Assembly (NCBI GenBank): GCA_963752595.1
Contig: CAVVYZ010000020.1
Span: 64,001 to 128,000, forward strand
Direction of reading: 5' to 3'
DNA from: an uncultured delta proteobacterium
GTDB lineage: Bacteria > Desulfobacterota > Desulfomonilia > UBA1062
Length of the DNA: 64,000 nt
Below, in pieces: positions 37,627-63,727 of the stretch; position 1 is the first letter of the stretch; every line of letters starts with the position of its first letter. A model generated the notes under the pieces. That model was not told where the DNA came from and ran no database searches. It worked only from the letters and a program-made list of their open reading frames with translations. A program made the translations under genes and the position numbers.

Positions 37627-37840
37627 GGCCGATCTCCTGGATAACATCTGGAACCGACTACCTGCAGACGGGAGCTCTTTAGAAGCCCGAGCCTGCCCGA
37701 AAGTGCCCTTAATCGTCCGGTCTTTACCATATGTGCCGAGGAACACGAGATATCCGGTATCCTCCCTTTGGTGTTTCACCTCTACTCTATAGCATATTGT
37801 ATTGACAGCTCAAAATCCATGCGGTAACTGACCTGTTGCA

Positions 37841-37960
37841 ACACGCCGAATCCCTGTATCACAGGGAACGGGGGACCCAATGAGCAGGGGCGTACCGCTT
37901 AACAAGCGTAAGGGCAAACTCTTCGGCCCGAGCCCGTCAGCTAACCTCGCAGGCGTCGAG
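37841..37960 (+). ncRNA. c-di-AMP (ydaO/yuaA) riboswitch
   Basis: CGCCGAATCC..GGAACGGGGGACCCA..GGGGCG..CCCGAGCCCGTCAGCTAACCTCGCAGGCG directly upstream of kup. Confidence 0.9.
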
Positions 37961-38020
37961 GAGTGAGACCTTCCGATATCCGGAGGCCTTGCCCCATAAA
38001 AAGGTTTTGGAGGGTCGGTA

Positions 38021-50368: not shown

Positions 50369-50665
50369 TTAGGCTCTCCTCTTCCAAATCCGGGGGCTAC
50401 GCTTGACATGAAATACGGAAAGAACCACAACCTTATCATCTTCGATGATGAAGAAAACTGAATAGGGAAATCTTCTGGTGAGTGCCCGACGAACATTTCT
50501 ATGTATTACTGGATAAATTAGGTGATTTCTGAGAATTGAATTGAAGAGAGCATCGAGGACAAGCAAGAGCTCAGAACCAAGACCACGAACACGAGTCTCA
50601 CACCAATCAAAGGCGTCTGCAATATCTGCTTCAGCCTCTGGACGGATGATCAGTCCAAGACTCAT
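50369..50665 (-). CDS. RelE/ParE-family toxin
   Basis: AEADIADAFDW, RFPYSVFF, VFHVKRSP. Confidence 0.88.
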   Translation of the reverse strand: MSLGLIIRPEAEADIADAFDWCETRVRGLGSELLLVLDALFNSILRNHLIYPVIHRNVRRALTRRFPYSVFFIIEDDKVVVLSVFHVKRSPRIWKRRA

Positions 50666-50883
50666 GCACGACTCTTAATGCGCTCTCGAACCATTAACCA
50701 CGGTGACCCTGCATTTGGATTGTTATGATATGCATCGAGCCGGCGATCTATTTCTGCCTTTTCTTCTTCTGTAAGCGACACTGATTCGGGGACCTGAGCA
50801 ATACTATCCCAAATATCCTGAACCAGCTGAATCCGCTCAGAAACGCTGAGGTCTAGAATGTCCTTCTTTGCAAATGATCCCAT
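50662..50883 (-). CDS. addiction module antitoxin (TIGR02574-like)
   Basis: LSVSERIQLVQDIWDSI..EIDRRL. Confidence 0.88.
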   Translation of the reverse strand: MGSFAKKDILDLSVSERIQLVQDIWDSIAQVPESVSLTEEEKAEIDRRLDAYHNNPNAGSPWLMVRERIKSRA

Positions 50884-52422: not shown

Positions 52423-52549
52423 ACATAATGGTTTGGCTCAGCGGCAGCGGCGAGGCACACAAGACTCCTTTGCCATTATCACTCACTTCTTGCAAGCCGA
52501 CGCTTCCCCTCGGCAGCGGAGCCACTGTCCGCTGGAGCCAGTGTTAGGC
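52423..52549 (-). repeat. attC site 3 (long, R' mutated)
   Basis: ACATAAT...GTTAGGC, 127 bp. Confidence 0.75.
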
Positions 52550-52627
52550 GCACCGCTTATTATTTTGATTGTTTCCGAAGAAACCCATCTTTTTGCAGCA
52601 AAATGGGCTTTACCGGTAAGGCAAGAC

Positions 52628-54944: not shown

Positions 54945-55244
54945 TTATTCGATAACTGGTATCCCACGATAACTATGCCAGATTCTTAGGACTTGGATTG
55001 TTTTAAGTGAGTTATCTATAAAGTAGATGATTCGATAAGGCTTTAGAATTGCTTCTCGAATTGAATCTTCACCTTTTTCAGGCACAACTCGATTTGAGAA
55101 GGGAAATTCAGATGCAAGTTCAATATGGTAGATAATCCGATCAGCAAGTTTTGCAGCTGCATCAGGATTATCAAGAGCGATGTACTGAACTATTTCTTTT
55201 AAATCCTCGTATGCAGATTCAGCCCATTTTATTGTGAAAGCCAT
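54945..55244 (-). CDS. RelE/ParE-family toxin
   Basis: AYEDLKEIVQYIALDNP, YRIIY, LRIWH. Confidence 0.88.
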   Translation of the reverse strand: MAFTIKWAESAYEDLKEIVQYIALDNPDAAAKLADRIIYHIELASEFPFSNRVVPEKGEDSIREAILKPYRIIYFIDNSLKTIQVLRIWHSYRGIPVIE

Positions 55245-56620: not shown

Positions 56621-56677
56621 GCCCAACGTGTAGATCAGCGGCGCGGGCGGCAGCCCGCGTCCGTCTGCATGCGTTTG
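56621..56677 (-). repeat. attC site 8, interrupted in R'' by IS copy 1 (remainder TTCGCC at 58387-58392)
   Basis: GCCCAAC...GCGTTTG|TTCGCC reconstitutes a full attC. Confidence 0.9.
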
Positions 56678-56754
56678 ATACTATGTAAGGCCTCCTCGAA
56701 TGGGTGGTATATTTGCTGGACCAACACCAAAAACCAACCAAGGAGGAGGCTTAA

Positions 56755-57798
56755 ATGAGATTCTACACCAAAGAGCACAAATTTTATTGTGGAATCGATC
56801 TGCACACCAAAAAAATGTATGTGTGCATACTGGGAAGCACAGGGGATATCATGGTTCACCGGAACATGAATACAGATGCAGGCGCTTTTCTTGAGCTCAT
56901 TGCTCCCTTTCGCGAGGACATCGTGGTAGCTGCAGAGTGCATGTTCACCTGGTACTGGGTAGCTGATCTGTGCGCCAAAGAGGGAATTCCTTTTATCCTG
57001 GGCCATGCTCTCTATATGAAAGCAATCCATGGCGGAAAGAGCAAAAACGACAAGATCGATTCCCATAAAATTGCTGTGCTCCTTAAGGGCGGCATGCTGC
57101 CCCAGGCATATGTCTATCCGGCGAAGATGCGCTCTACCAGGGATCTCCTCAGGAGGAGAAATCATCTGGTGAGGAAGAGAGCCGAGCTCTTTGCCCATAT
57201 TCAGAACACAAAAAGCCAGTACAACCTGCCGGAACATCTCGGCCGCATTGCCAAGCCGAAGAACAGAGAGGGCGTTGTAGAGCGATTCGACGATAGAAGT
57301 GTGAGGAAGAACATGGAAGTGGACCTTGCCATGATCGAAGCCTATGACCGCATCATCCTCCCGCTAGAGCGGGAGATTATAAAGATCGCCAATGGACATG
57401 ATCTCCTTTCCTATACTCTTCTGCAAACCATCCCAGGAGTCGGCAGAATCCTCGCTCTTGTAATGCTCTATGAAATAGAGACCATTAATCGATTCGCAAC
57501 TGTCCAGGACTTTGCCTCATATGCCCGTCTGGTTAAATGTAAAAAAGAATCCAACGGTAAAACCTATGGAACCAGCGGAAAGAAGATCGGCAATGCTCAC
57601 TTAAAGTGGGCTTTCAGTGAAGCATCGGTACTCTTCATCAAGGGCAATGAACCAGCGAAGAAATACCTCGACCGGCTTACCCAGAAACACGGGAAAGGAA
57701 AAGCACTCTCGATCCTTGCCCACAAGCTCGGAAGAGCTGCCTATTACCTGCTGAAAAACAAAGTGGCTTTCGATACTGAGAAGTTCTTGAGCCACTAA
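56755..57798 (+). CDS. IS110-family DEDD recombinase/transposase
   Basis: GIDLH, E, KNDKID (RuvC-like DEDD); TIPGVG; ESNGK Ser loop; GNAHLKW. Confidence 0.95.
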   Translation: MRFYTKEHKFYCGIDLHTKKMYVCILGSTGDIMVHRNMNTDAGAFLELIAPFREDIVVAAECMFTWYWVADLCAKEGIPFILGHALYMKAIHGGKSKNDKIDSHKIAVLLKGGMLPQAYVYPAKMRSTRDLLRRRNHLVRKRAELFAHIQNTKSQYNLPEHLGRIAKPKNREGVVERFDDRSVRKNMEVDLAMIEAYDRIILPLEREIIKIANGHDLLSYTLLQTIPGVGRILALVMLYEIETINRFATVQDFASYARLVKCKKESNGKTYGTSGKKIGNAHLKWAFSEASVLFIKGNEPAKKYLDRLTQKHGKGKALSILAHKLGRAAYYLLKNKVAFDTEKFLSH

Positions 57799-58368
57799 AG
57801 AATTGGAGGAGACGGATCAGTCCGACGCCTAACTGGAGCCATATGGGGATGGAGCACGCATTCACCTCGATCAGAAAGGGAATAGAATATCCTTGCATGA
57901 TAAGAGTGCTTGAAAAAGGATGTGCCCGATTGGTACCCCGCAGCCTGTTGCGCTTGATTGGAGATCCGTCTCGCTCCTTCGATACATGCTCTTGTTGGTC
58001 AGGTTCTGCCCCTTACCCGAACCCGCGCCTAACTGGGAAGAACAGCACCCCGGCGTTTGACTGGGACGGCACGAGGGAGAACGGCATTGTTTCTAGGTCG
58101 CATTCTTCTAAGAAGAGAGGGCAACCACTCGCTTGCATCTCTCTTCGGGAAGAATGATGAAGAGAACCTCAATAAGTGTTTGGTGCAGGATTTGATTTCG
58201 CTTGCACCCGTTGATGAAACCAAAGCCAGAGCAGCCAACATCGAGCAATATGGTTGAACGGAAAAAAGAATCGTCTTACCGTTCAAGAGTGTCTTGCCAA
58301 TAGACACACAATGCAGACGAAAAAGAAGAACAACTTTTTCGTCTTGGGGTAGTTTTATCTATTGACAA
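57799..58368 (+). ncRNA. predicted bridge/seek RNA (two target loops plus one donor loop)
   Basis: Guide pairs GCCTAAC/GCGCTTG, GCCTAAC/GCGTTTG and CATTGTTTC/ATAAGTG within stems; 3' hairpins. Confidence 0.72.
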
Positions 58369-58405
58369 GAGGAGGCCTTATAAGTGTTCGCCTGCTTTTC
58401 ACCGG

Positions 58406-58669
58406 CTATTCGTAATGTGTCCACATGCGGATGACTTTCACTGTTTTGATGTCATCAAGTATTTGGTAAACCAGCCGGTGTTGGATGTTCATTCTTCTGG
58501 AGCATGCTCCAGATAGATCTCCTAGAAGTTTTTCATATGGCGGGGGAGTCTGATAGGGATCTTCTTTGAGGATTTCGAGCAGATGCTCTGCCTGAGGTTT
58601 TAAACCGGAATGTGCGATCTTCTTGGCGTCTTTCTTTGCCTGCTTGGTAAAGGCTACCCTCCAAGTCAC
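58406..58669 (-). CDS. yoeB: Txe/YoeB toxin
   Basis: EKLLGDLSGACSRRMNIQHRLVY, WTHYE. Confidence 0.92.
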   Translation of the reverse strand: MTWRVAFTKQAKKDAKKIAHSGLKPQAEHLLEILKEDPYQTPPPYEKLLGDLSGACSRRMNIQHRLVYQILDDIKTVKVIRMWTHYE

Positions 58670-58908
58670 CAGTCAACATCCTCATCGCACTCCTCTACGG
58701 GAGTTCCAAGCCCTTCCCGGATAGATTCACGCATGCCAGGTATTGATGTGAGGTACAAAGTTTCCTGGATTGCTCGCCAATCATCTTCAGAAATAAGAAC
58801 TGCCGAGCTCCTTTTCCCAACGATCTGAATCGGCTCATGGGATTCTTTCACCTCATCCACAAGGCTATATAAACGCTTTCTTGCTTCCGTTGCTGTTAGG
58901 GTAGGCAT
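58666..58908 (-). CDS. yefM: Phd/YefM antitoxin
   Basis: ATEARKRLY, AVLISE, ETLYL. Confidence 0.92.
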   Translation of the reverse strand: MPTLTATEARKRLYSLVDEVKESHEPIQIVGKRSSAVLISEDDWRAIQETLYLTSIPGMRESIREGLGTPVEECDEDVDW

Positions 58909-58975: not shown

Positions 58976-59028
58976 GGCGAACGTAGGCATCAGCGGCGGC
59001 TGAAAGCCGTCCGCTGGATGCATTGGGC
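58976..59028 (-). repeat. attC site 9 (R'' damaged by small deletions)
   Basis: GGCGAAC...GGATGCATTGGGC versus family GGATGCCATTGTTGGGC. Confidence 0.75.
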
Positions 59029-59077
59029 TTTATAACTTGTCAATATAACATTCAAAGAATGGCCGTTCTCGATACAT

Positions 59078-60304
59078 TTGTTCAAATTTTCTTGGTTCAC
59101 CACGAACCGCGGGTACAGTAGTTGGTCTCACTTTGTATCGATGCTGTTCTGCCGGTTGGCGCAGGCAAAGAGTATCCGGGAGATTTGCGATGGGCTTGCC
59201 TGTTGCGTGGGAAAACTCAAACATCCGGGGCTTCAGGAATCTCCGAAGAAGTCGACGCTCTCCTATGCGAATGCCCACAGGCCCTGGGAGATGTACCGTG
59301 ATCTTTTCTATCTTCTGCTGGAAAGATACCGTGGAAGCATGAAAGGCAAGAAGAGGAAATTCCGTTTCAAGAACAAGCTGCTTTCTTTGGACAGCACGAC
59401 CATATCCCTGTGCTTGTCCATATTCCCCTGGGCAGAGTTCAGGAGGACAAAAGGTGCGGTCAAGCTGCATCTTCTGCTGGATCATGACGGATATCTTCCC
59501 ACCTATGCCTATATCTCAAACGGGAAAAAGCACGATGTCACCATTGCCAGAAAGGTTCCTCTTACACCGGTCTCCATCGTCACCATGGACAAGGGGTATA
59601 ATGATTACCGCCTGTTTGCTTCCTGGACTGAATCCGGGATCTATTTCGTCACCAGGATGAAAGACAATGCCGTCTACAATGTGGTGGAGGAACGCAGTGT
59701 TCCTCGGCATAAGAATATCCTCTCAGACCAGCTCATCATCTTCACGGGAACAGGAGCCGAAGAGAAATGTCCCCATGTCCTGCGCCGGGTGGTTGTATGG
59801 GACGAAGAAAACCAAAGACAGATTATCCTGCTGACCAACCACTTCTCTTTTTCTGCACGTACCATATCCGCCATCTACAAGGACCGTTGGGAAATCGAGA
59901 TCTTCTTCAAGACGCTCAAGCAGAACCTCAAAGTGAAAACCTTTGTCGGCACCAGCGAAAACGCCCTGTATATCCGGATTTGGACAGCACTTATCGCCAT
60001 GCTCATGATCAAGTACCTGCAGCACATCTCCAGATTATCCTGGTCCCTTTCCAACCTCGTCACCTTGCTTCGCCGGAATCTCTTTACTTACCGTGATCTG
60101 CATGCCTGGCTCGATAACCCCTTTGAAACACCACCGGCTGAACCCGAGTTTGTCCAAGAAGTGCTGCCTTTCCCCGGTCTTGGACAGCATGTGTGCAATG
60201 TAGATAAAATGAGAACCGGGTCATGAAAAATCGCTTGTCCCAAACCTAACGCATTGATTTGTTTTGACCTGAATCAGAAATCAGGATTATTTTGGACAGC
60301 AGTG
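59078..60304 (+). mobile_element. IS4-family element, left end truncated (transposase 59078-60226)
   Basis: DSTTI, KLH, DKGY, YKDRWEIEIFFK (YREK); right end TTTGGACAGCAGTG; matching left IR not found. Confidence 0.85.
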
Positions 60305-60388: not shown

Positions 60389-60703
60389 TTAGAAACCAGT
60401 AAATAAGAAATCAAGAGCTGAAATGATTACATGACGCTGATCTTTAAGGGTCCCGACCTTTTCGCCTAAAACACGGACAGAAACACCTGCCATCTCAGCT
60501 GTGGACATGTATACAATCTTTCGTTTAATTTTAAACTGTGGATTGAGATGGTCTATTGGTCTTCCTAAGGCTGATGCGCTTATAAGGGGCGCAACAACTC
60601 GTGTTGCCAGAGAACTAAGGAGATCGGCTTGAAGATCGACAAGGTAGGGAATATCTTTTTTTGTACGCTCATTTAAATTTTCATACACATCAAATTGTGC
60701 CAT
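60389..60703 (-). CDS. ccdB: CcdB-family toxin
   Basis: MAQFDVY, PYLVDLQ, TRVVAPL, ALDFLFTGF. Confidence 0.9.
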   Translation of the reverse strand: MAQFDVYENLNERTKKDIPYLVDLQADLLSSLATRVVAPLISASALGRPIDHLNPQFKIKRKIVYMSTAEMAGVSVRVLGEKVGTLKDQRHVIISALDFLFTGF

Positions 60704-60951
60704 TAAAAGTTCCTCAATTCATCACTGAATACTCCTGAGACTTCAATTCGCTGATTATAGGCTTCAATAGCCTCTTTATTATTTTCTCTCCATTTGCAAC
60801 GCTTTTCCTCCAGGAGCATTTCTATAAGGCGCTGCTCCAATGCCCTTGATAAATTGATGCTGTTTTTCTTCGCTTGCTGGAGGAGATCGCTATTGATACT
60901 CAGGTTAGTGGATTTTTTAGGTGCTTTGGGATTAAAGATGTTGATTTGCAT
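60703..60951 (-). CDS. ccdA: CcdA antitoxin
   Basis: KKSTNLSIN, INLS, WRENNKEAIEAYN. Confidence 0.9.
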   Translation of the reverse strand: MQINIFNPKAPKKSTNLSINSDLLQQAKKNSINLSRALEQRLIEMLLEEKRCKWRENNKEAIEAYNQRIEVSGVFSDELRNF

Positions 60952-60962
60952 GCTTGCCTCCT

Positions 60963-61000
60963 TATGCGCATATAATAGCCACATTAATGCGCATTATCAA
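60963..61000 (-). promoter_or_regulatory. ccdAB promoter with two ATGCGCAT operator palindromes
   Basis: TTGATA-N17-TATTAT on the minus strand. Confidence 0.7.
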
Positions 61001-61923: not shown

Positions 61924-61974
61924 GCCTAACGCCAGGCATCAGCGGCGGCTTTAGCCGTCCGCTGGAGGCCTTTG
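61924..61974 (-). repeat. attC site 12, interrupted in R'' by IS copy 2 (remainder TTATGC at 63684-63689)
   Basis: GCCTAAC...GCCTTTG|TTATGC. Confidence 0.9.
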
Positions 61975-62051
61975 ATACTATGTAAGGCCTCCTCGAATGG
62001 GTGGTATATTTGCTGGACCAACACCAAAAACCAACCAAGGAGGAGGCTTAA

Positions 62052-63095
62052 ATGAGATTCTACACCAAAGAGCACAAATTTTATTGTGGAATCGATCTGC
62101 ACACCAAAAAAATGTATGTGTGCATACTGGGAAGCACAGGGGATATCATGGTTCACCGGAACATGAATACAGATGCAGGCGCTTTTCTTGAGCTCATTGC
62201 TCCCTTTCGCGAGGACATCGTGGTAGCTGCAGAGTGCATGTTCACCTGGTACTGGGTAGCTGATCTGTGCGCCAAAGAGGGAATTCCTTTTATCCTGGGC
62301 CATGCTCTCTATATGAAAGCAATCCATGGCGGAAAGAGCAAAAACGACAAGATCGATTCCCATAAAATTGCTGTGCTCCTTAAGGGCGGCATGCTGCCCC
62401 AGGCATATGTCTATCCGGCGAAGATGCGCTCTACCAGGGATCTCCTCAGGAGGAGAAATCATCTGGTGAGGAAGAGAGCCGAGCTCTTTGCCCATATTCA
62501 GAACACAAAAAGCCAGTACAACCTGCCGGAACATCTCGGCCGCATTGCCAAGCCGAAGAACAGAGAGGGCGTTGTAGAGCGATTCGACGATAGAAGTGTG
62601 AGGAAGAACATGGAAGTGGACCTTGCCATGATCGAAGCCTATGACCGCATCATCCTCCCGCTAGAGCGGGAGATTATAAAGATCGCCAATGGACATGATC
62701 TCCTTTCCTATACTCTTCTGCAAACCATCCCAGGAGTCGGCAGAATCCTCGCTCTTGTAATGCTCTATGAAATAGAGACCATTAATCGATTCGCAACTGT
62801 CCAGGACTTTGCCTCATATGCCCGTCTGGTTAAATGTAAAAAAGAATCCAACGGTAAAACCTATGGAACCAGCGGAAAGAAGATCGGCAATGCTCACTTA
62901 AAGTGGGCTTTCAGTGAAGCATCGGTACTCTTCATCAAGGGCAATGAACCAGCGAAGAAATACCTCGACCGGCTTACCCAGAAACACGGGAAAGGAAAAG
63001 CACTCTCGATCCTTGCCCACAAGCTCGGAAGAGCTGCCTATTACCTGCTGAAAAACAAAGTGGCTTTCGATACTGAGAAGTTCTTGAGCCACTAA
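62052..63095 (+). CDS. IS110-family DEDD recombinase/transposase
   Basis: Translation identical to 56755-57798. Confidence 0.95.
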   Translation: MRFYTKEHKFYCGIDLHTKKMYVCILGSTGDIMVHRNMNTDAGAFLELIAPFREDIVVAAECMFTWYWVADLCAKEGIPFILGHALYMKAIHGGKSKNDKIDSHKIAVLLKGGMLPQAYVYPAKMRSTRDLLRRRNHLVRKRAELFAHIQNTKSQYNLPEHLGRIAKPKNREGVVERFDDRSVRKNMEVDLAMIEAYDRIILPLEREIIKIANGHDLLSYTLLQTIPGVGRILALVMLYEIETINRFATVQDFASYARLVKCKKESNGKTYGTSGKKIGNAHLKWAFSEASVLFIKGNEPAKKYLDRLTQKHGKGKALSILAHKLGRAAYYLLKNKVAFDTEKFLSH

Positions 63096-63665
63096 AGAAT
63101 TGGAGGAGACGGATCAGTCCGACGCCTAACTGGAGCCATATGGGGATGGAGCACGCATTCACCTCGATCAGAAAGGGAATAGAATATCCTTGCATGATAA
63201 GAGTGCTTGAAAAAGGATGTGCCCGATTGGTACCCCGCAGCCTGTTGCGCTTGATTGGAGATCCGTCTCGCTCCTTCGATACATGCTCTTGTTGGTCAGG
63301 TTCTGCCCCTTACCCGAACCCGCGCCTAACTGGGAAGAACAGCACCCCGGCGTTTGACTGGGACGGCACGAGGGAGAACGGCATTGTTTCTAGGTCGCAT
63401 TCTTCTAAGAAGAGAGGGCAACCACTCGCTTGCATCTCTCTTCGGGAAGAATGATGAAGAGAACCTCAATAAGTGTTTGGTGCAGGATTTGATTTCGCTT
63501 GCACCCGTTGATGAAACCAAAGCCAGAGCAGCCAACATCGAGCAATATGGTTGAACGGAAAAAAGAATCGTCTTACCGTTCGAGAGTGTCTTGCCAATAG
63601 ACACACAATGCAGACGAAAAAGAAGAACAACTTTTTCGTCTTGGGGTAGTTTTATCTATTGACAA
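63096..63665 (+). ncRNA. predicted bridge/seek RNA, copy 2
   Basis: Same guide loops as copy 1. Confidence 0.72.
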
Positions 63666-63727
63666 GAGGAGGCCTTATAAGTGTTATGCTTTTTTGTAAG
63701 GCTCAGATATTAGATAATGAAAGGCTT

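Follow-up and report, generated by a model that had tools for sequence, protein, structure and literature searches.

The non-coding end 3' of the transposase gene of an IS110-family element from an uncultured delta proteobacterium is predicted, almost with certainty, to encode a guide RNA that consists of three modules. From the way in which the guide letters vary together with the DNA flanking related elements, the first loop very probably picks the landing site and the third loop is the donor loop; the second probably reads that site's core rather than supplying a second address on a par with the first. The element is located in a window of 64,000 nucleotides (the whole stretch of DNA analyzed here), and sequence comparison suggests that it belongs to a genuine, widely distributed variant, with three loops, of an RNA-guided system that is already known. 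A first-pass annotation of the window had proposed a multi-guide bridge RNA whose duplicated target loop widens the recognition of integron attC sites; the three modules and the types of their loops were borne out, the widening of attC recognition through loop 2 was not.

The element shows an IS1111-type anatomy, with subterminal inverted repeats and a long non-coding end 3' of the gene (586 nt on the right versus 77 nt on the left; Table 1). Its body comprises 1,707 bp (56678-58384) and is flanked by TG cores at 56676-77 and 58385-86; in both copies present in the window the dinucleotide core TG is found at both junctions, with no longer duplication. The transposase has the hallmarks of IS110, i.e. 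the DEDD RuvC-like and Transposase_20 domains with retained catalytic residues, and D15, E61, D99, D102 and S266 do not change across 15 homologs. The second copy in the window (body 61975-63681) is 99.7% identical to the first. A third full copy elsewhere in the genome (G000 C2:222477-224215) is 88% identical and inserted within an attC; its transposase is apparently frameshifted, and its loop 1 guides equal its loop 2 guides. A fourth copy (G000 C1:291895-293401) has lost both ends and stops directly after loop 3. A -35/-10-like pattern spans the predicted junction in 113 of the 124 homologs with both ends called, from which we infer that the circle junction would create a promoter.

Table 1. 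Positions of the element, its guide RNA modules and the interrupted attC in the window.
Feature	Position	Strand	Remarks
Larger part of the attC split by copy 1 (R' box through spacer)	56621..56675	-	R'' box at 58386-58392
IS110-family element with IS1111-type anatomy, copy 1	56676..58386	+	body 56678-58384; TG core shared at each end; within attC
Left subterminal inverted repeat, 12 bp	56686..56697	+	8 nt inward from left end
DEDD transposase/recombinase, 347 aa	56755..57798	+	Pfam PF01548 and PF02371; NF033542 above cut-off
Domain 1, predicted free-standing hairpin with loop 1 (target-choosing)	57805..57977	+	compensatory changes in closing stem (75 sequences); guide-site covariation; fold z -2.1
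Loop 1 guides, within domain 1	left 57827-33, right 57950-56	+	handshake-like AT 57957-58
Domain 2, predicted three-way bridge domain with loop-2 arm and donor loop	58000..58194	+	consensus fold (58 sequences); fold z -2.1
Loop 2, target-type	58027..58061	+	left guide 58027-33, right guide 58053-59; clade-wide tracks core and adjacent bases only
Loop 3, donor loop	58085..58180	+	left guide 58085-93, right guide 58172-78, handshake-like TT 58179-80; covaries with ends and first flank bases
Possible terminator, hairpin in distal 3' end	58316..58343	+	from sequence; seen by eye in many homologs
-35 box TTGACA	58362..58367	+	predicted circle-junction promoter with left-end GATACT, 18-nt spacer
Right subterminal inverted repeat, 12 bp	58369..58380	+	4 nt inward from right end
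Element copy 2	61973..63683	+	same three loops (63124-30, 63324-30 etc.); in attC starting at 61924

Excision of either window copy in silico rebuilds a normal attC, and insertion into attC is seen for both window copies and for the copy on contig C2. An integron integrase (TIGR02249) is found at G000 C20:132916, approximately 5 kb to the right of the window. About 30 attC sites of one family are distributed over six contigs (G000 C2, C5, C13, C16, C20, C26), most of them distant from the only full integrase. The cassette array carries at least four toxin-antitoxin modules or toxins (50369-50883, 54945-55244, 58406-58908, 60389-60984), their types being ParE with an addiction component, ParE, YoeB/ParE with Phd/YefM, and CcdB with CcdA; a c-di-AMP riboswitch (RF00379) is located at window positions 37834-37970.

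The six guide motifs of the first-pass annotation, like the stem that closes loop 1, were found at the coordinates it had given, and the match of loop 3 to the circle junction rebuilt from the element ends is likewise as claimed (7/9 left, 7/7 right). The right guides of the three modules are followed by TG-ATTGG, TG-ACTGG and TG-TTTGG. The motif GCCTAAC alone occurs 10 times in the window compared to 4.6 expected, a number reached by 3 of 100 shuffles and thus barely above chance, and the fold of the whole 402-nt region is unremarkable (z -0.74), with each domain alone at about -2.1; the case for the layout rests on conservation among homologs and on covariation. No matching family was found in an Rfam search of the 3' end. 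Consensus folding (75 and 58 of the 111 representatives) predicts loop 1 as a separate hairpin with a 13-pair outer stem (78-96% paired, each pair backed by 9-29 sequences with compensatory changes); in the predicted second domain, the arm that carries loop 2 forms a branch alongside the donor loop. Compensatory changes are seen in the closing stems of both domains, the inner stems not being resolved, and all these pair counts were obtained without a phylogenetic null. The linker between the domains is A/T-richer (0.59 versus 0.47).

The homologous loci comprise 80 from metagenomes and 79 from genomes, plus further copies, samples and plasmids. Alignment of their 3' ends demonstrated that the three-module layout is conserved, loop 1 included: it is intact in 156 of the 177 homologous 3' ends long enough to align, whose transposases are 48-100% identical, and these represent 121 distinct guide sets. 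Excluded from the counts were the other 21 3' ends (truncated, misaligned or degenerate), the right flank of locus L044, and loci without a called end. Judged by record titles, carriers include delta proteobacteria, Nitrospirae, Planctomycetota, Acidobacteriota, Gemmatimonadota, Calditrichia and two archaeal bins, in addition to plasmids of Vibrio, Pseudoalteromonas and Alteromonas; viral contigs yielded no relative of this clade or of the second clade described below.

Covariation of the guides in these homologs upholds the assignment made in the first-pass annotation, i.e. a guide region of the bridge or seek type with two target-type loops (1 and 2) and a donor loop (3). The right guide of loop 3 is identical to the right arm in 118 of 130 elements, a concordance that extends over six variants of the arm. 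The two bases after this guide agree with the start of the flank in 128 of the 130, and they change from TT to TA where the flank begins with TA. For the left guide of loop 3, three of eight positions covary with the left end. Since similarity to the guides was partly used in calling the element ends, these donor-side counts are inflated, but a guide-free right-end pattern shows the same concordance with loop 3. One mismatch between the donor left guide and the left end is constant: it concerns the second base before the core (window position 58092) and occurs in each of the 72 distinct guide-end pairs. The right junction reads GG in 13 elements and AG in 3, with TG at the left junction and in every guide, which suggests that the right junction keeps the core letter of the target and that non-CA sites are tolerated.

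For 110 unique sites, the mean match is 7.62 of 11 positions for loop 1 versus 5.85 of 11 for loop 2, and loop 1 is the better loop at 82 sites, loop 2 at 17, with 11 ties. In our first data set, with 93 and 92 pairs of guide and site, loop 1 covaries with the site at five right-guide and six left-guide positions (z 2.5-8.5). In a sign test on 40 disjoint sister pairs, the site tracks loop 1 in 28 versus 6 pairs (p 0.0002), and it also follows in those pairs in which only loop 1 has changed (46 versus 14 positions; 22 versus 6 pairs, p 0.004). Where loop 2 mismatches, loop 1 still matches the site more often than with permuted sites (0.648 versus 0.450, p 0.0003). The first-pass annotation had considered that GCCTAAC might be structural and hence invariant; the motif varies with the target in several homologs, in which loop 1 has apparently been reprogrammed naturally to non-attC sites: it matches 9/9 positions in L095, 7/7 in L185, whose loop 2 is still attC-like, 6/6 and 5/5 in L228, and 6/6 before the core in L092, L094 and L216, and the loop-1 guide of L114 is also changed and matches its flanks. 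The sites of these elements mostly lack an attC hairpin. The occupied sites, which are those of surviving insertions and no direct readout of insertion, are explained by loop 1 alone. Only 60 of 105 homolog sites pass either of two crude attC tests, which indicates that attC is the main habit of the clade and is not established for each member. Three loci from two genomes or metagenomes (L047, L087, L088) share an identical odd right flank starting with TTCCGGCGC; their left flanks are attC-like.

The tests that single out loop 1 give a different result for loop 2, and the proposal that the duplicated loop widens attC recognition is not supported clade-wide, as loop 2 fails both the rescue and the sister-pair tests. 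Loop 2 matches the site at 63.2 of 173.9 loop-1 mismatches, i.e. as often as permuted sites do (0.363 versus 0.371, p 0.60), and there is no site effect in sister pairs in which loop 2 alone changes (17 versus 12 positions; 8 versus 6 pairs, p 0.79). Overall, the site follows loop 2 in 16 versus 10 sister pairs (p 0.33); before conditioning on loop 1 the count is 43 versus 24 positions (p 0.027). In the first data set, covariation of loop 2 exceeds z 3 next to the core only. Among guide sets whose left core is TG, none of 90 has a core letter other than T in loop 2, compared to 4 of 10 among those with another left core (p 5e-5), and this departure from T only together with a non-TG core argues that loop 2 is under core-linked selection. 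In two separate lineages (L080 and L136/L228) CG has replaced TG as the core, at both ends as well as in each of the three right guides, and in the L092 clade loop 2 is altered at the base two before the core and has retained the core-pairing C which loop 1 has lost.

The best explanation for the whole pattern, and one which we consider slightly likelier to be right than wrong, is that loop 1 serves as target loop, loop 3 as donor loop, and loop 2 as a relaxed, core-reading target loop, perhaps for circle formation. Excision, and with it circle formation, is reportedly independent of target complementarity (10.64898/2026.08.31.748434), which points to this step as the likeliest use of loop 2; the assignment was reached by elimination, and taken by itself it is plausible rather than probable. 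Split loops are reported to function and a donor loop alone to be able to recombine (10.1101/2025.05.14.653916), and in IS621 the donor loop alone can excise (PMC13626964), so that a dedicated partner loop is perhaps unneeded. In 98 of 100 guide sets loop 2 has A as its first handshake base, the insertion-type letter according to the rule distinguishing insertion from excision (PMC13626964); as read from these letters, excision appears no more favoured than a placeholder or hand-over role.

An alternative that we regard as unlikely is that loop 2 acts as a scaffold or placeholder, which holds a recombinase dimer in the partner slot and either limits donor-donor recombination or brakes excision; its core-linked conservation would then reflect a weak DNA contact without a productive step. 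The stems of loop 2 and its TGG and handshake letters are indeed strongly conserved while the distal guide letters drift, more donor-donor recombination is reported for a donor loop alone than for the joined RNA (10.1101/2025.05.14.653916), and element ends are described as bound unproductively by two target-loop dimers (PMC13626964). However, changes in loop 2 accompany those of the core and of the second base preceding it, and loop 2 copies the right guide of loop 1 in seven elements of the second clade; these core-linked changes and copied guides amount to more pairing than a pure scaffold requires.

Still less probable is a model in which loop 1 and loop 2 can each serve alone as target loop, the pair broadening the attC range. 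Several points speak for it. As the first-pass annotation had noted, the two occupied attCs are the best matches to the loop-2 right guide within the window (7/7 and 6/7), unoccupied sites scoring 5/7 or less: 3-5/7 at eight sites scored by script and 4/7, by eye, at a site at about 52500-52550. A further attC, at 58980, has no GTT in register; it is adjoined by an IS4-type DDE transposase gene (59078-60226, in window 58977-60300). The loop-1 right guide reaches 6/7 and 5/7 on the two occupied sites, and with both guides combined each window copy matches loop 2 at 11/13 and loop 1 at 10/13 positions, a lead of one base. These in-window scores discriminate little: loops 1 and 2 of the window element differ by a single base, and unoccupied attCs scoring 6/7 exist elsewhere in the genome for loop 2 (C26:49852) as well as for loop 1 (C16:15270 and C13:105294 (GG core)). 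Loop 2 carries the full attC guide GCCTAAC in the sub-lineage of the window, with identical loops 1 and 2 in the C2 copy, and LTG1 equals LTG2 in 6 of the 121 guide sets. A search of 121 other genomes of the class for close relatives with the window's own guides gave a match in one genome, and this match belongs to the second clade, so that the lean of the window to loop 2, which amounts to one base at two sites, cannot be extended. Among the homologs, 17 of 110 sites favour loop 2 versus 11.6 with permuted sites (p 0.026), and the L092 clade with its core-pairing C in loop 2 also fits two alternative loops. Against these points stand the failed rescue with its positive reverse and the missing site effect of loop 2 in sister pairs; in addition, wins of loop 2 by at least two bases are near expectation (6 versus 4.9), and its left guide mostly starts with non-attC-like bases (A in 54 of 100, as against G in 88 for loop 1).

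A two-step or proofreading scheme, in which loop 1 would find and open the site and the donor-tethered loop 2 would then take over for strand exchange, is improbable: its predictions for covariation do not differ from those of the best explanation, and it agrees with the insertion-type handshake A and core tracking of loop 2 and with the reported cooperation of a target-loop-only RNA with the full bridge RNA of CazIS110-1 (10.1101/2025.10.25.684509), but elements occupy sites that fit loop 2 poorly (L095, L185, L228).

Two further roles for loop 2 were rejected. It is not the better generalist, as its match to permuted sites is 1.90 of 5 compared to 2.03 for loop 1, and it is not a hybrid junction guide, both of its guides being target-type and not donor-type. 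A third role, reading of the R' box of a folded attC, is at odds with its first bases, which misfit RYYYAAC.

The following course can be envisaged. The promoter at the circle junction would drive transcription of the RNA together with the transposase gene. Loop 1 lies in a hairpin of its own, which a short linker richer in A/U separates from the rest, and would be a natural split target guide, acting in cis or after processing; a target-loop-only RNA is reported as the main species for CazIS110-1 (10.1101/2025.10.25.684509). Loops 2 and 3 would form the multi-loop bridge domain of IS1111-type RNAs. By analogy with known systems, a recombinase dimer on loop 1 would hold RYYYAA-CA-NNNNN at the R'' box of attC and a second dimer on loop 3 the circle junction; strand exchange would take place at the shared CA/TG core, and the handshake bases (AT in loop 1, TT in loop 3) would drive the reaction forward, as in IS621. 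Loop 2 probably was the original target loop and would have relaxed after loop 1 took over site choice; it likely pairs only with this site's core and the bases next to it, and may aid circle formation from any occupied attC.

A second clade, with transposases 27-35% identical to that of the window, shows the same three-module layout with different guides, as identified by motif and by reading; it was not detected by sequence profiles of domains 1 and 2 (E 0.015 or worse). Its loci (L187, L207, L262-L265, L271, L276, L279-L290) have right ends reading ATGGG-TG and often G-rich targets. The end motif of the free hairpin is present once in 18 of the 21 distinct second-clade elements with a 3' end, twice in one and in variant form in two. 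In the guide comparison, for which only 10 cleanly parsed loci (8 elements) were counted, six rows with a misread loop-1 left guide and two unparsed rows being left out, the left guide of loop 1 fits better at 8 loci and ties at 2; three more loci parsed by eye gave two in favour of loop 1 and one in favour of loop 2. In seven elements (L187, L264, L280, L282, L285, L286, L290) the right guides of loops 1 and 2 are the same, which fits a reading of the same site by both loops, with a shared consensus possibly contributing. The layout was not seen by eye in five farther IS110 loci (L266-L270; 22-28% identity).

One second-clade element, in genome G004, contains two free-standing target-type hairpins in addition to the bridge domain, i.e. 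four loops in all, and is present in four identical copies (L272-L275; C2:925600-928900, C2:1853100-1856400, C2:1890700-1894000, C3:398100-401400). Two copies lie after AGGTT, which fits hairpin A at 5/5, hairpin B at 3/5 and the bridge branch at 4/5 positions, and two after AGACC (2/5, 4/5 and 3/5, respectively). This suggests that duplication of the free hairpin provides two addresses, a pattern seen in one element only and in which G-U wobble could let hairpin A or the branch cover both sites. More generally, free target hairpins might be an expandable guide module providing several addresses, with loop 2 of the window sub-lineage having regained an attC guide and also picking sites; we regard this as possible but doubtful. 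Comparison of the left ends of L272-L277 also revealed that two different G004 elements (65% protein identity) share about 350 nt of near-identical left end.

Several consequences would follow from the proposed division of labour. Reprogramming of elements of this clade must alter loop 1, and prediction pipelines that assume one target loop may choose the wrong loop. The three-loop form also touches on the question of seekRNA versus bridge RNA, i.e. the roles of a target-only RNA and of the rest of the IS1111 RNA, and may inform it since the tasks are laid out in separate segments, each of which can be deleted without the others. If hairpin duplication indeed yields several addresses, one compact recombinase could be multiplexed. 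Our survey of the literature on IS1111/attC bridge RNAs, multiple target loops, extra loops and IS1111 structures, which covered texts rather than figures and few subscription papers, found no three-loop layout.

Other elements that target attC, the IS1111-attC group, are reportedly treated in Tetu and Holmes 2008 and in Post and Hall 2009. Like the window element, members of this group (ISKpn4, ISPst6, ISPa21, ISPa25) target one attC end, have a 3' non-coding RNA and share the order of target matches (PMC11187229; PMC13604230). Their transposases belong to another lineage, however, ISGsu5 being 17% identical to ISKpn4 and ISPst6 in the published supplement matrix; the crossover in attC lies about 5 nt closer to the R'' box, and their long RNAs are described as about 150 nt with one target loop, compared to the approximately 390 nt spanned by the loops of the window element. 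Given the identity via ISGsu5 and the offset crossover, the window element is not assigned to the group around ISKpn4, ISPst6 and ISPa21, and it points to a second, independent lineage parasitising integron attC sites. The window transposase falls into the same clade as the ISGsu4 cluster of ISfinder (ISGsu4, ISGsu5, ISShfr7, ISShwo5), 37 of its first 60 residues, by eye, being those of ISGsu4. ISGsu5 is only 15-26% identical to listed IS1111 members. The clade has already been catalogued by its transposases (Durrant supplement row 476; ISGsu4 protein in Siddiquee supplement), and no description of an RNA or target was found in the literature on the four elements.

Bridge RNAs of IS110 and IS1111 elements are described with one target and one donor loop (Durrant 2024, PMC11208160), and in this respect the 3' ends analyzed here differ, a second target-type loop being present in 156 of 177. 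Deviant bridge RNA structures are reported in the supplement of the Evo-PIN preprint, and several predicted donor loops at one locus elsewhere (10.64898/2026.08.14.744561). The window element shares the long right end, the subterminal repeats and the donor guides in a multi-loop with ISCARN28, ISAzs32 and ISPa11 (IS1111 group; Durrant 2024 Fig. 6d), and its domain 2 agrees with their description; as compared by text and legends, no second target-type loop is named for them, whereas the window element has one. IS621 and ISCro4 (IS622) share with it a DEDD recombinase, left and right guides overlapping a 2-nt core (PMC11208160; PMC13626964; Perry 2025 preprint), insertion-type handshake dinucleotides, and guides that covary with target and donor. 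They are described with one target and one donor loop 5' of the gene and a CT core, in contrast to the three loops 3' of the gene, the CA/TG core and the separate target-choosing hairpin of the window element. CazIS110-1 also combines a free target loop with a full bridge RNA (10.1101/2025.10.25.684509), but its free loop is a processed piece of its single loop, whereas loop 1 of the window element is encoded separately with guide letters of its own. Bridge recombinases have been modelled with one target and one donor loop, and the three-loop form with its detachable hairpin for site choice would be the natural counterpart of the engineered split guide.
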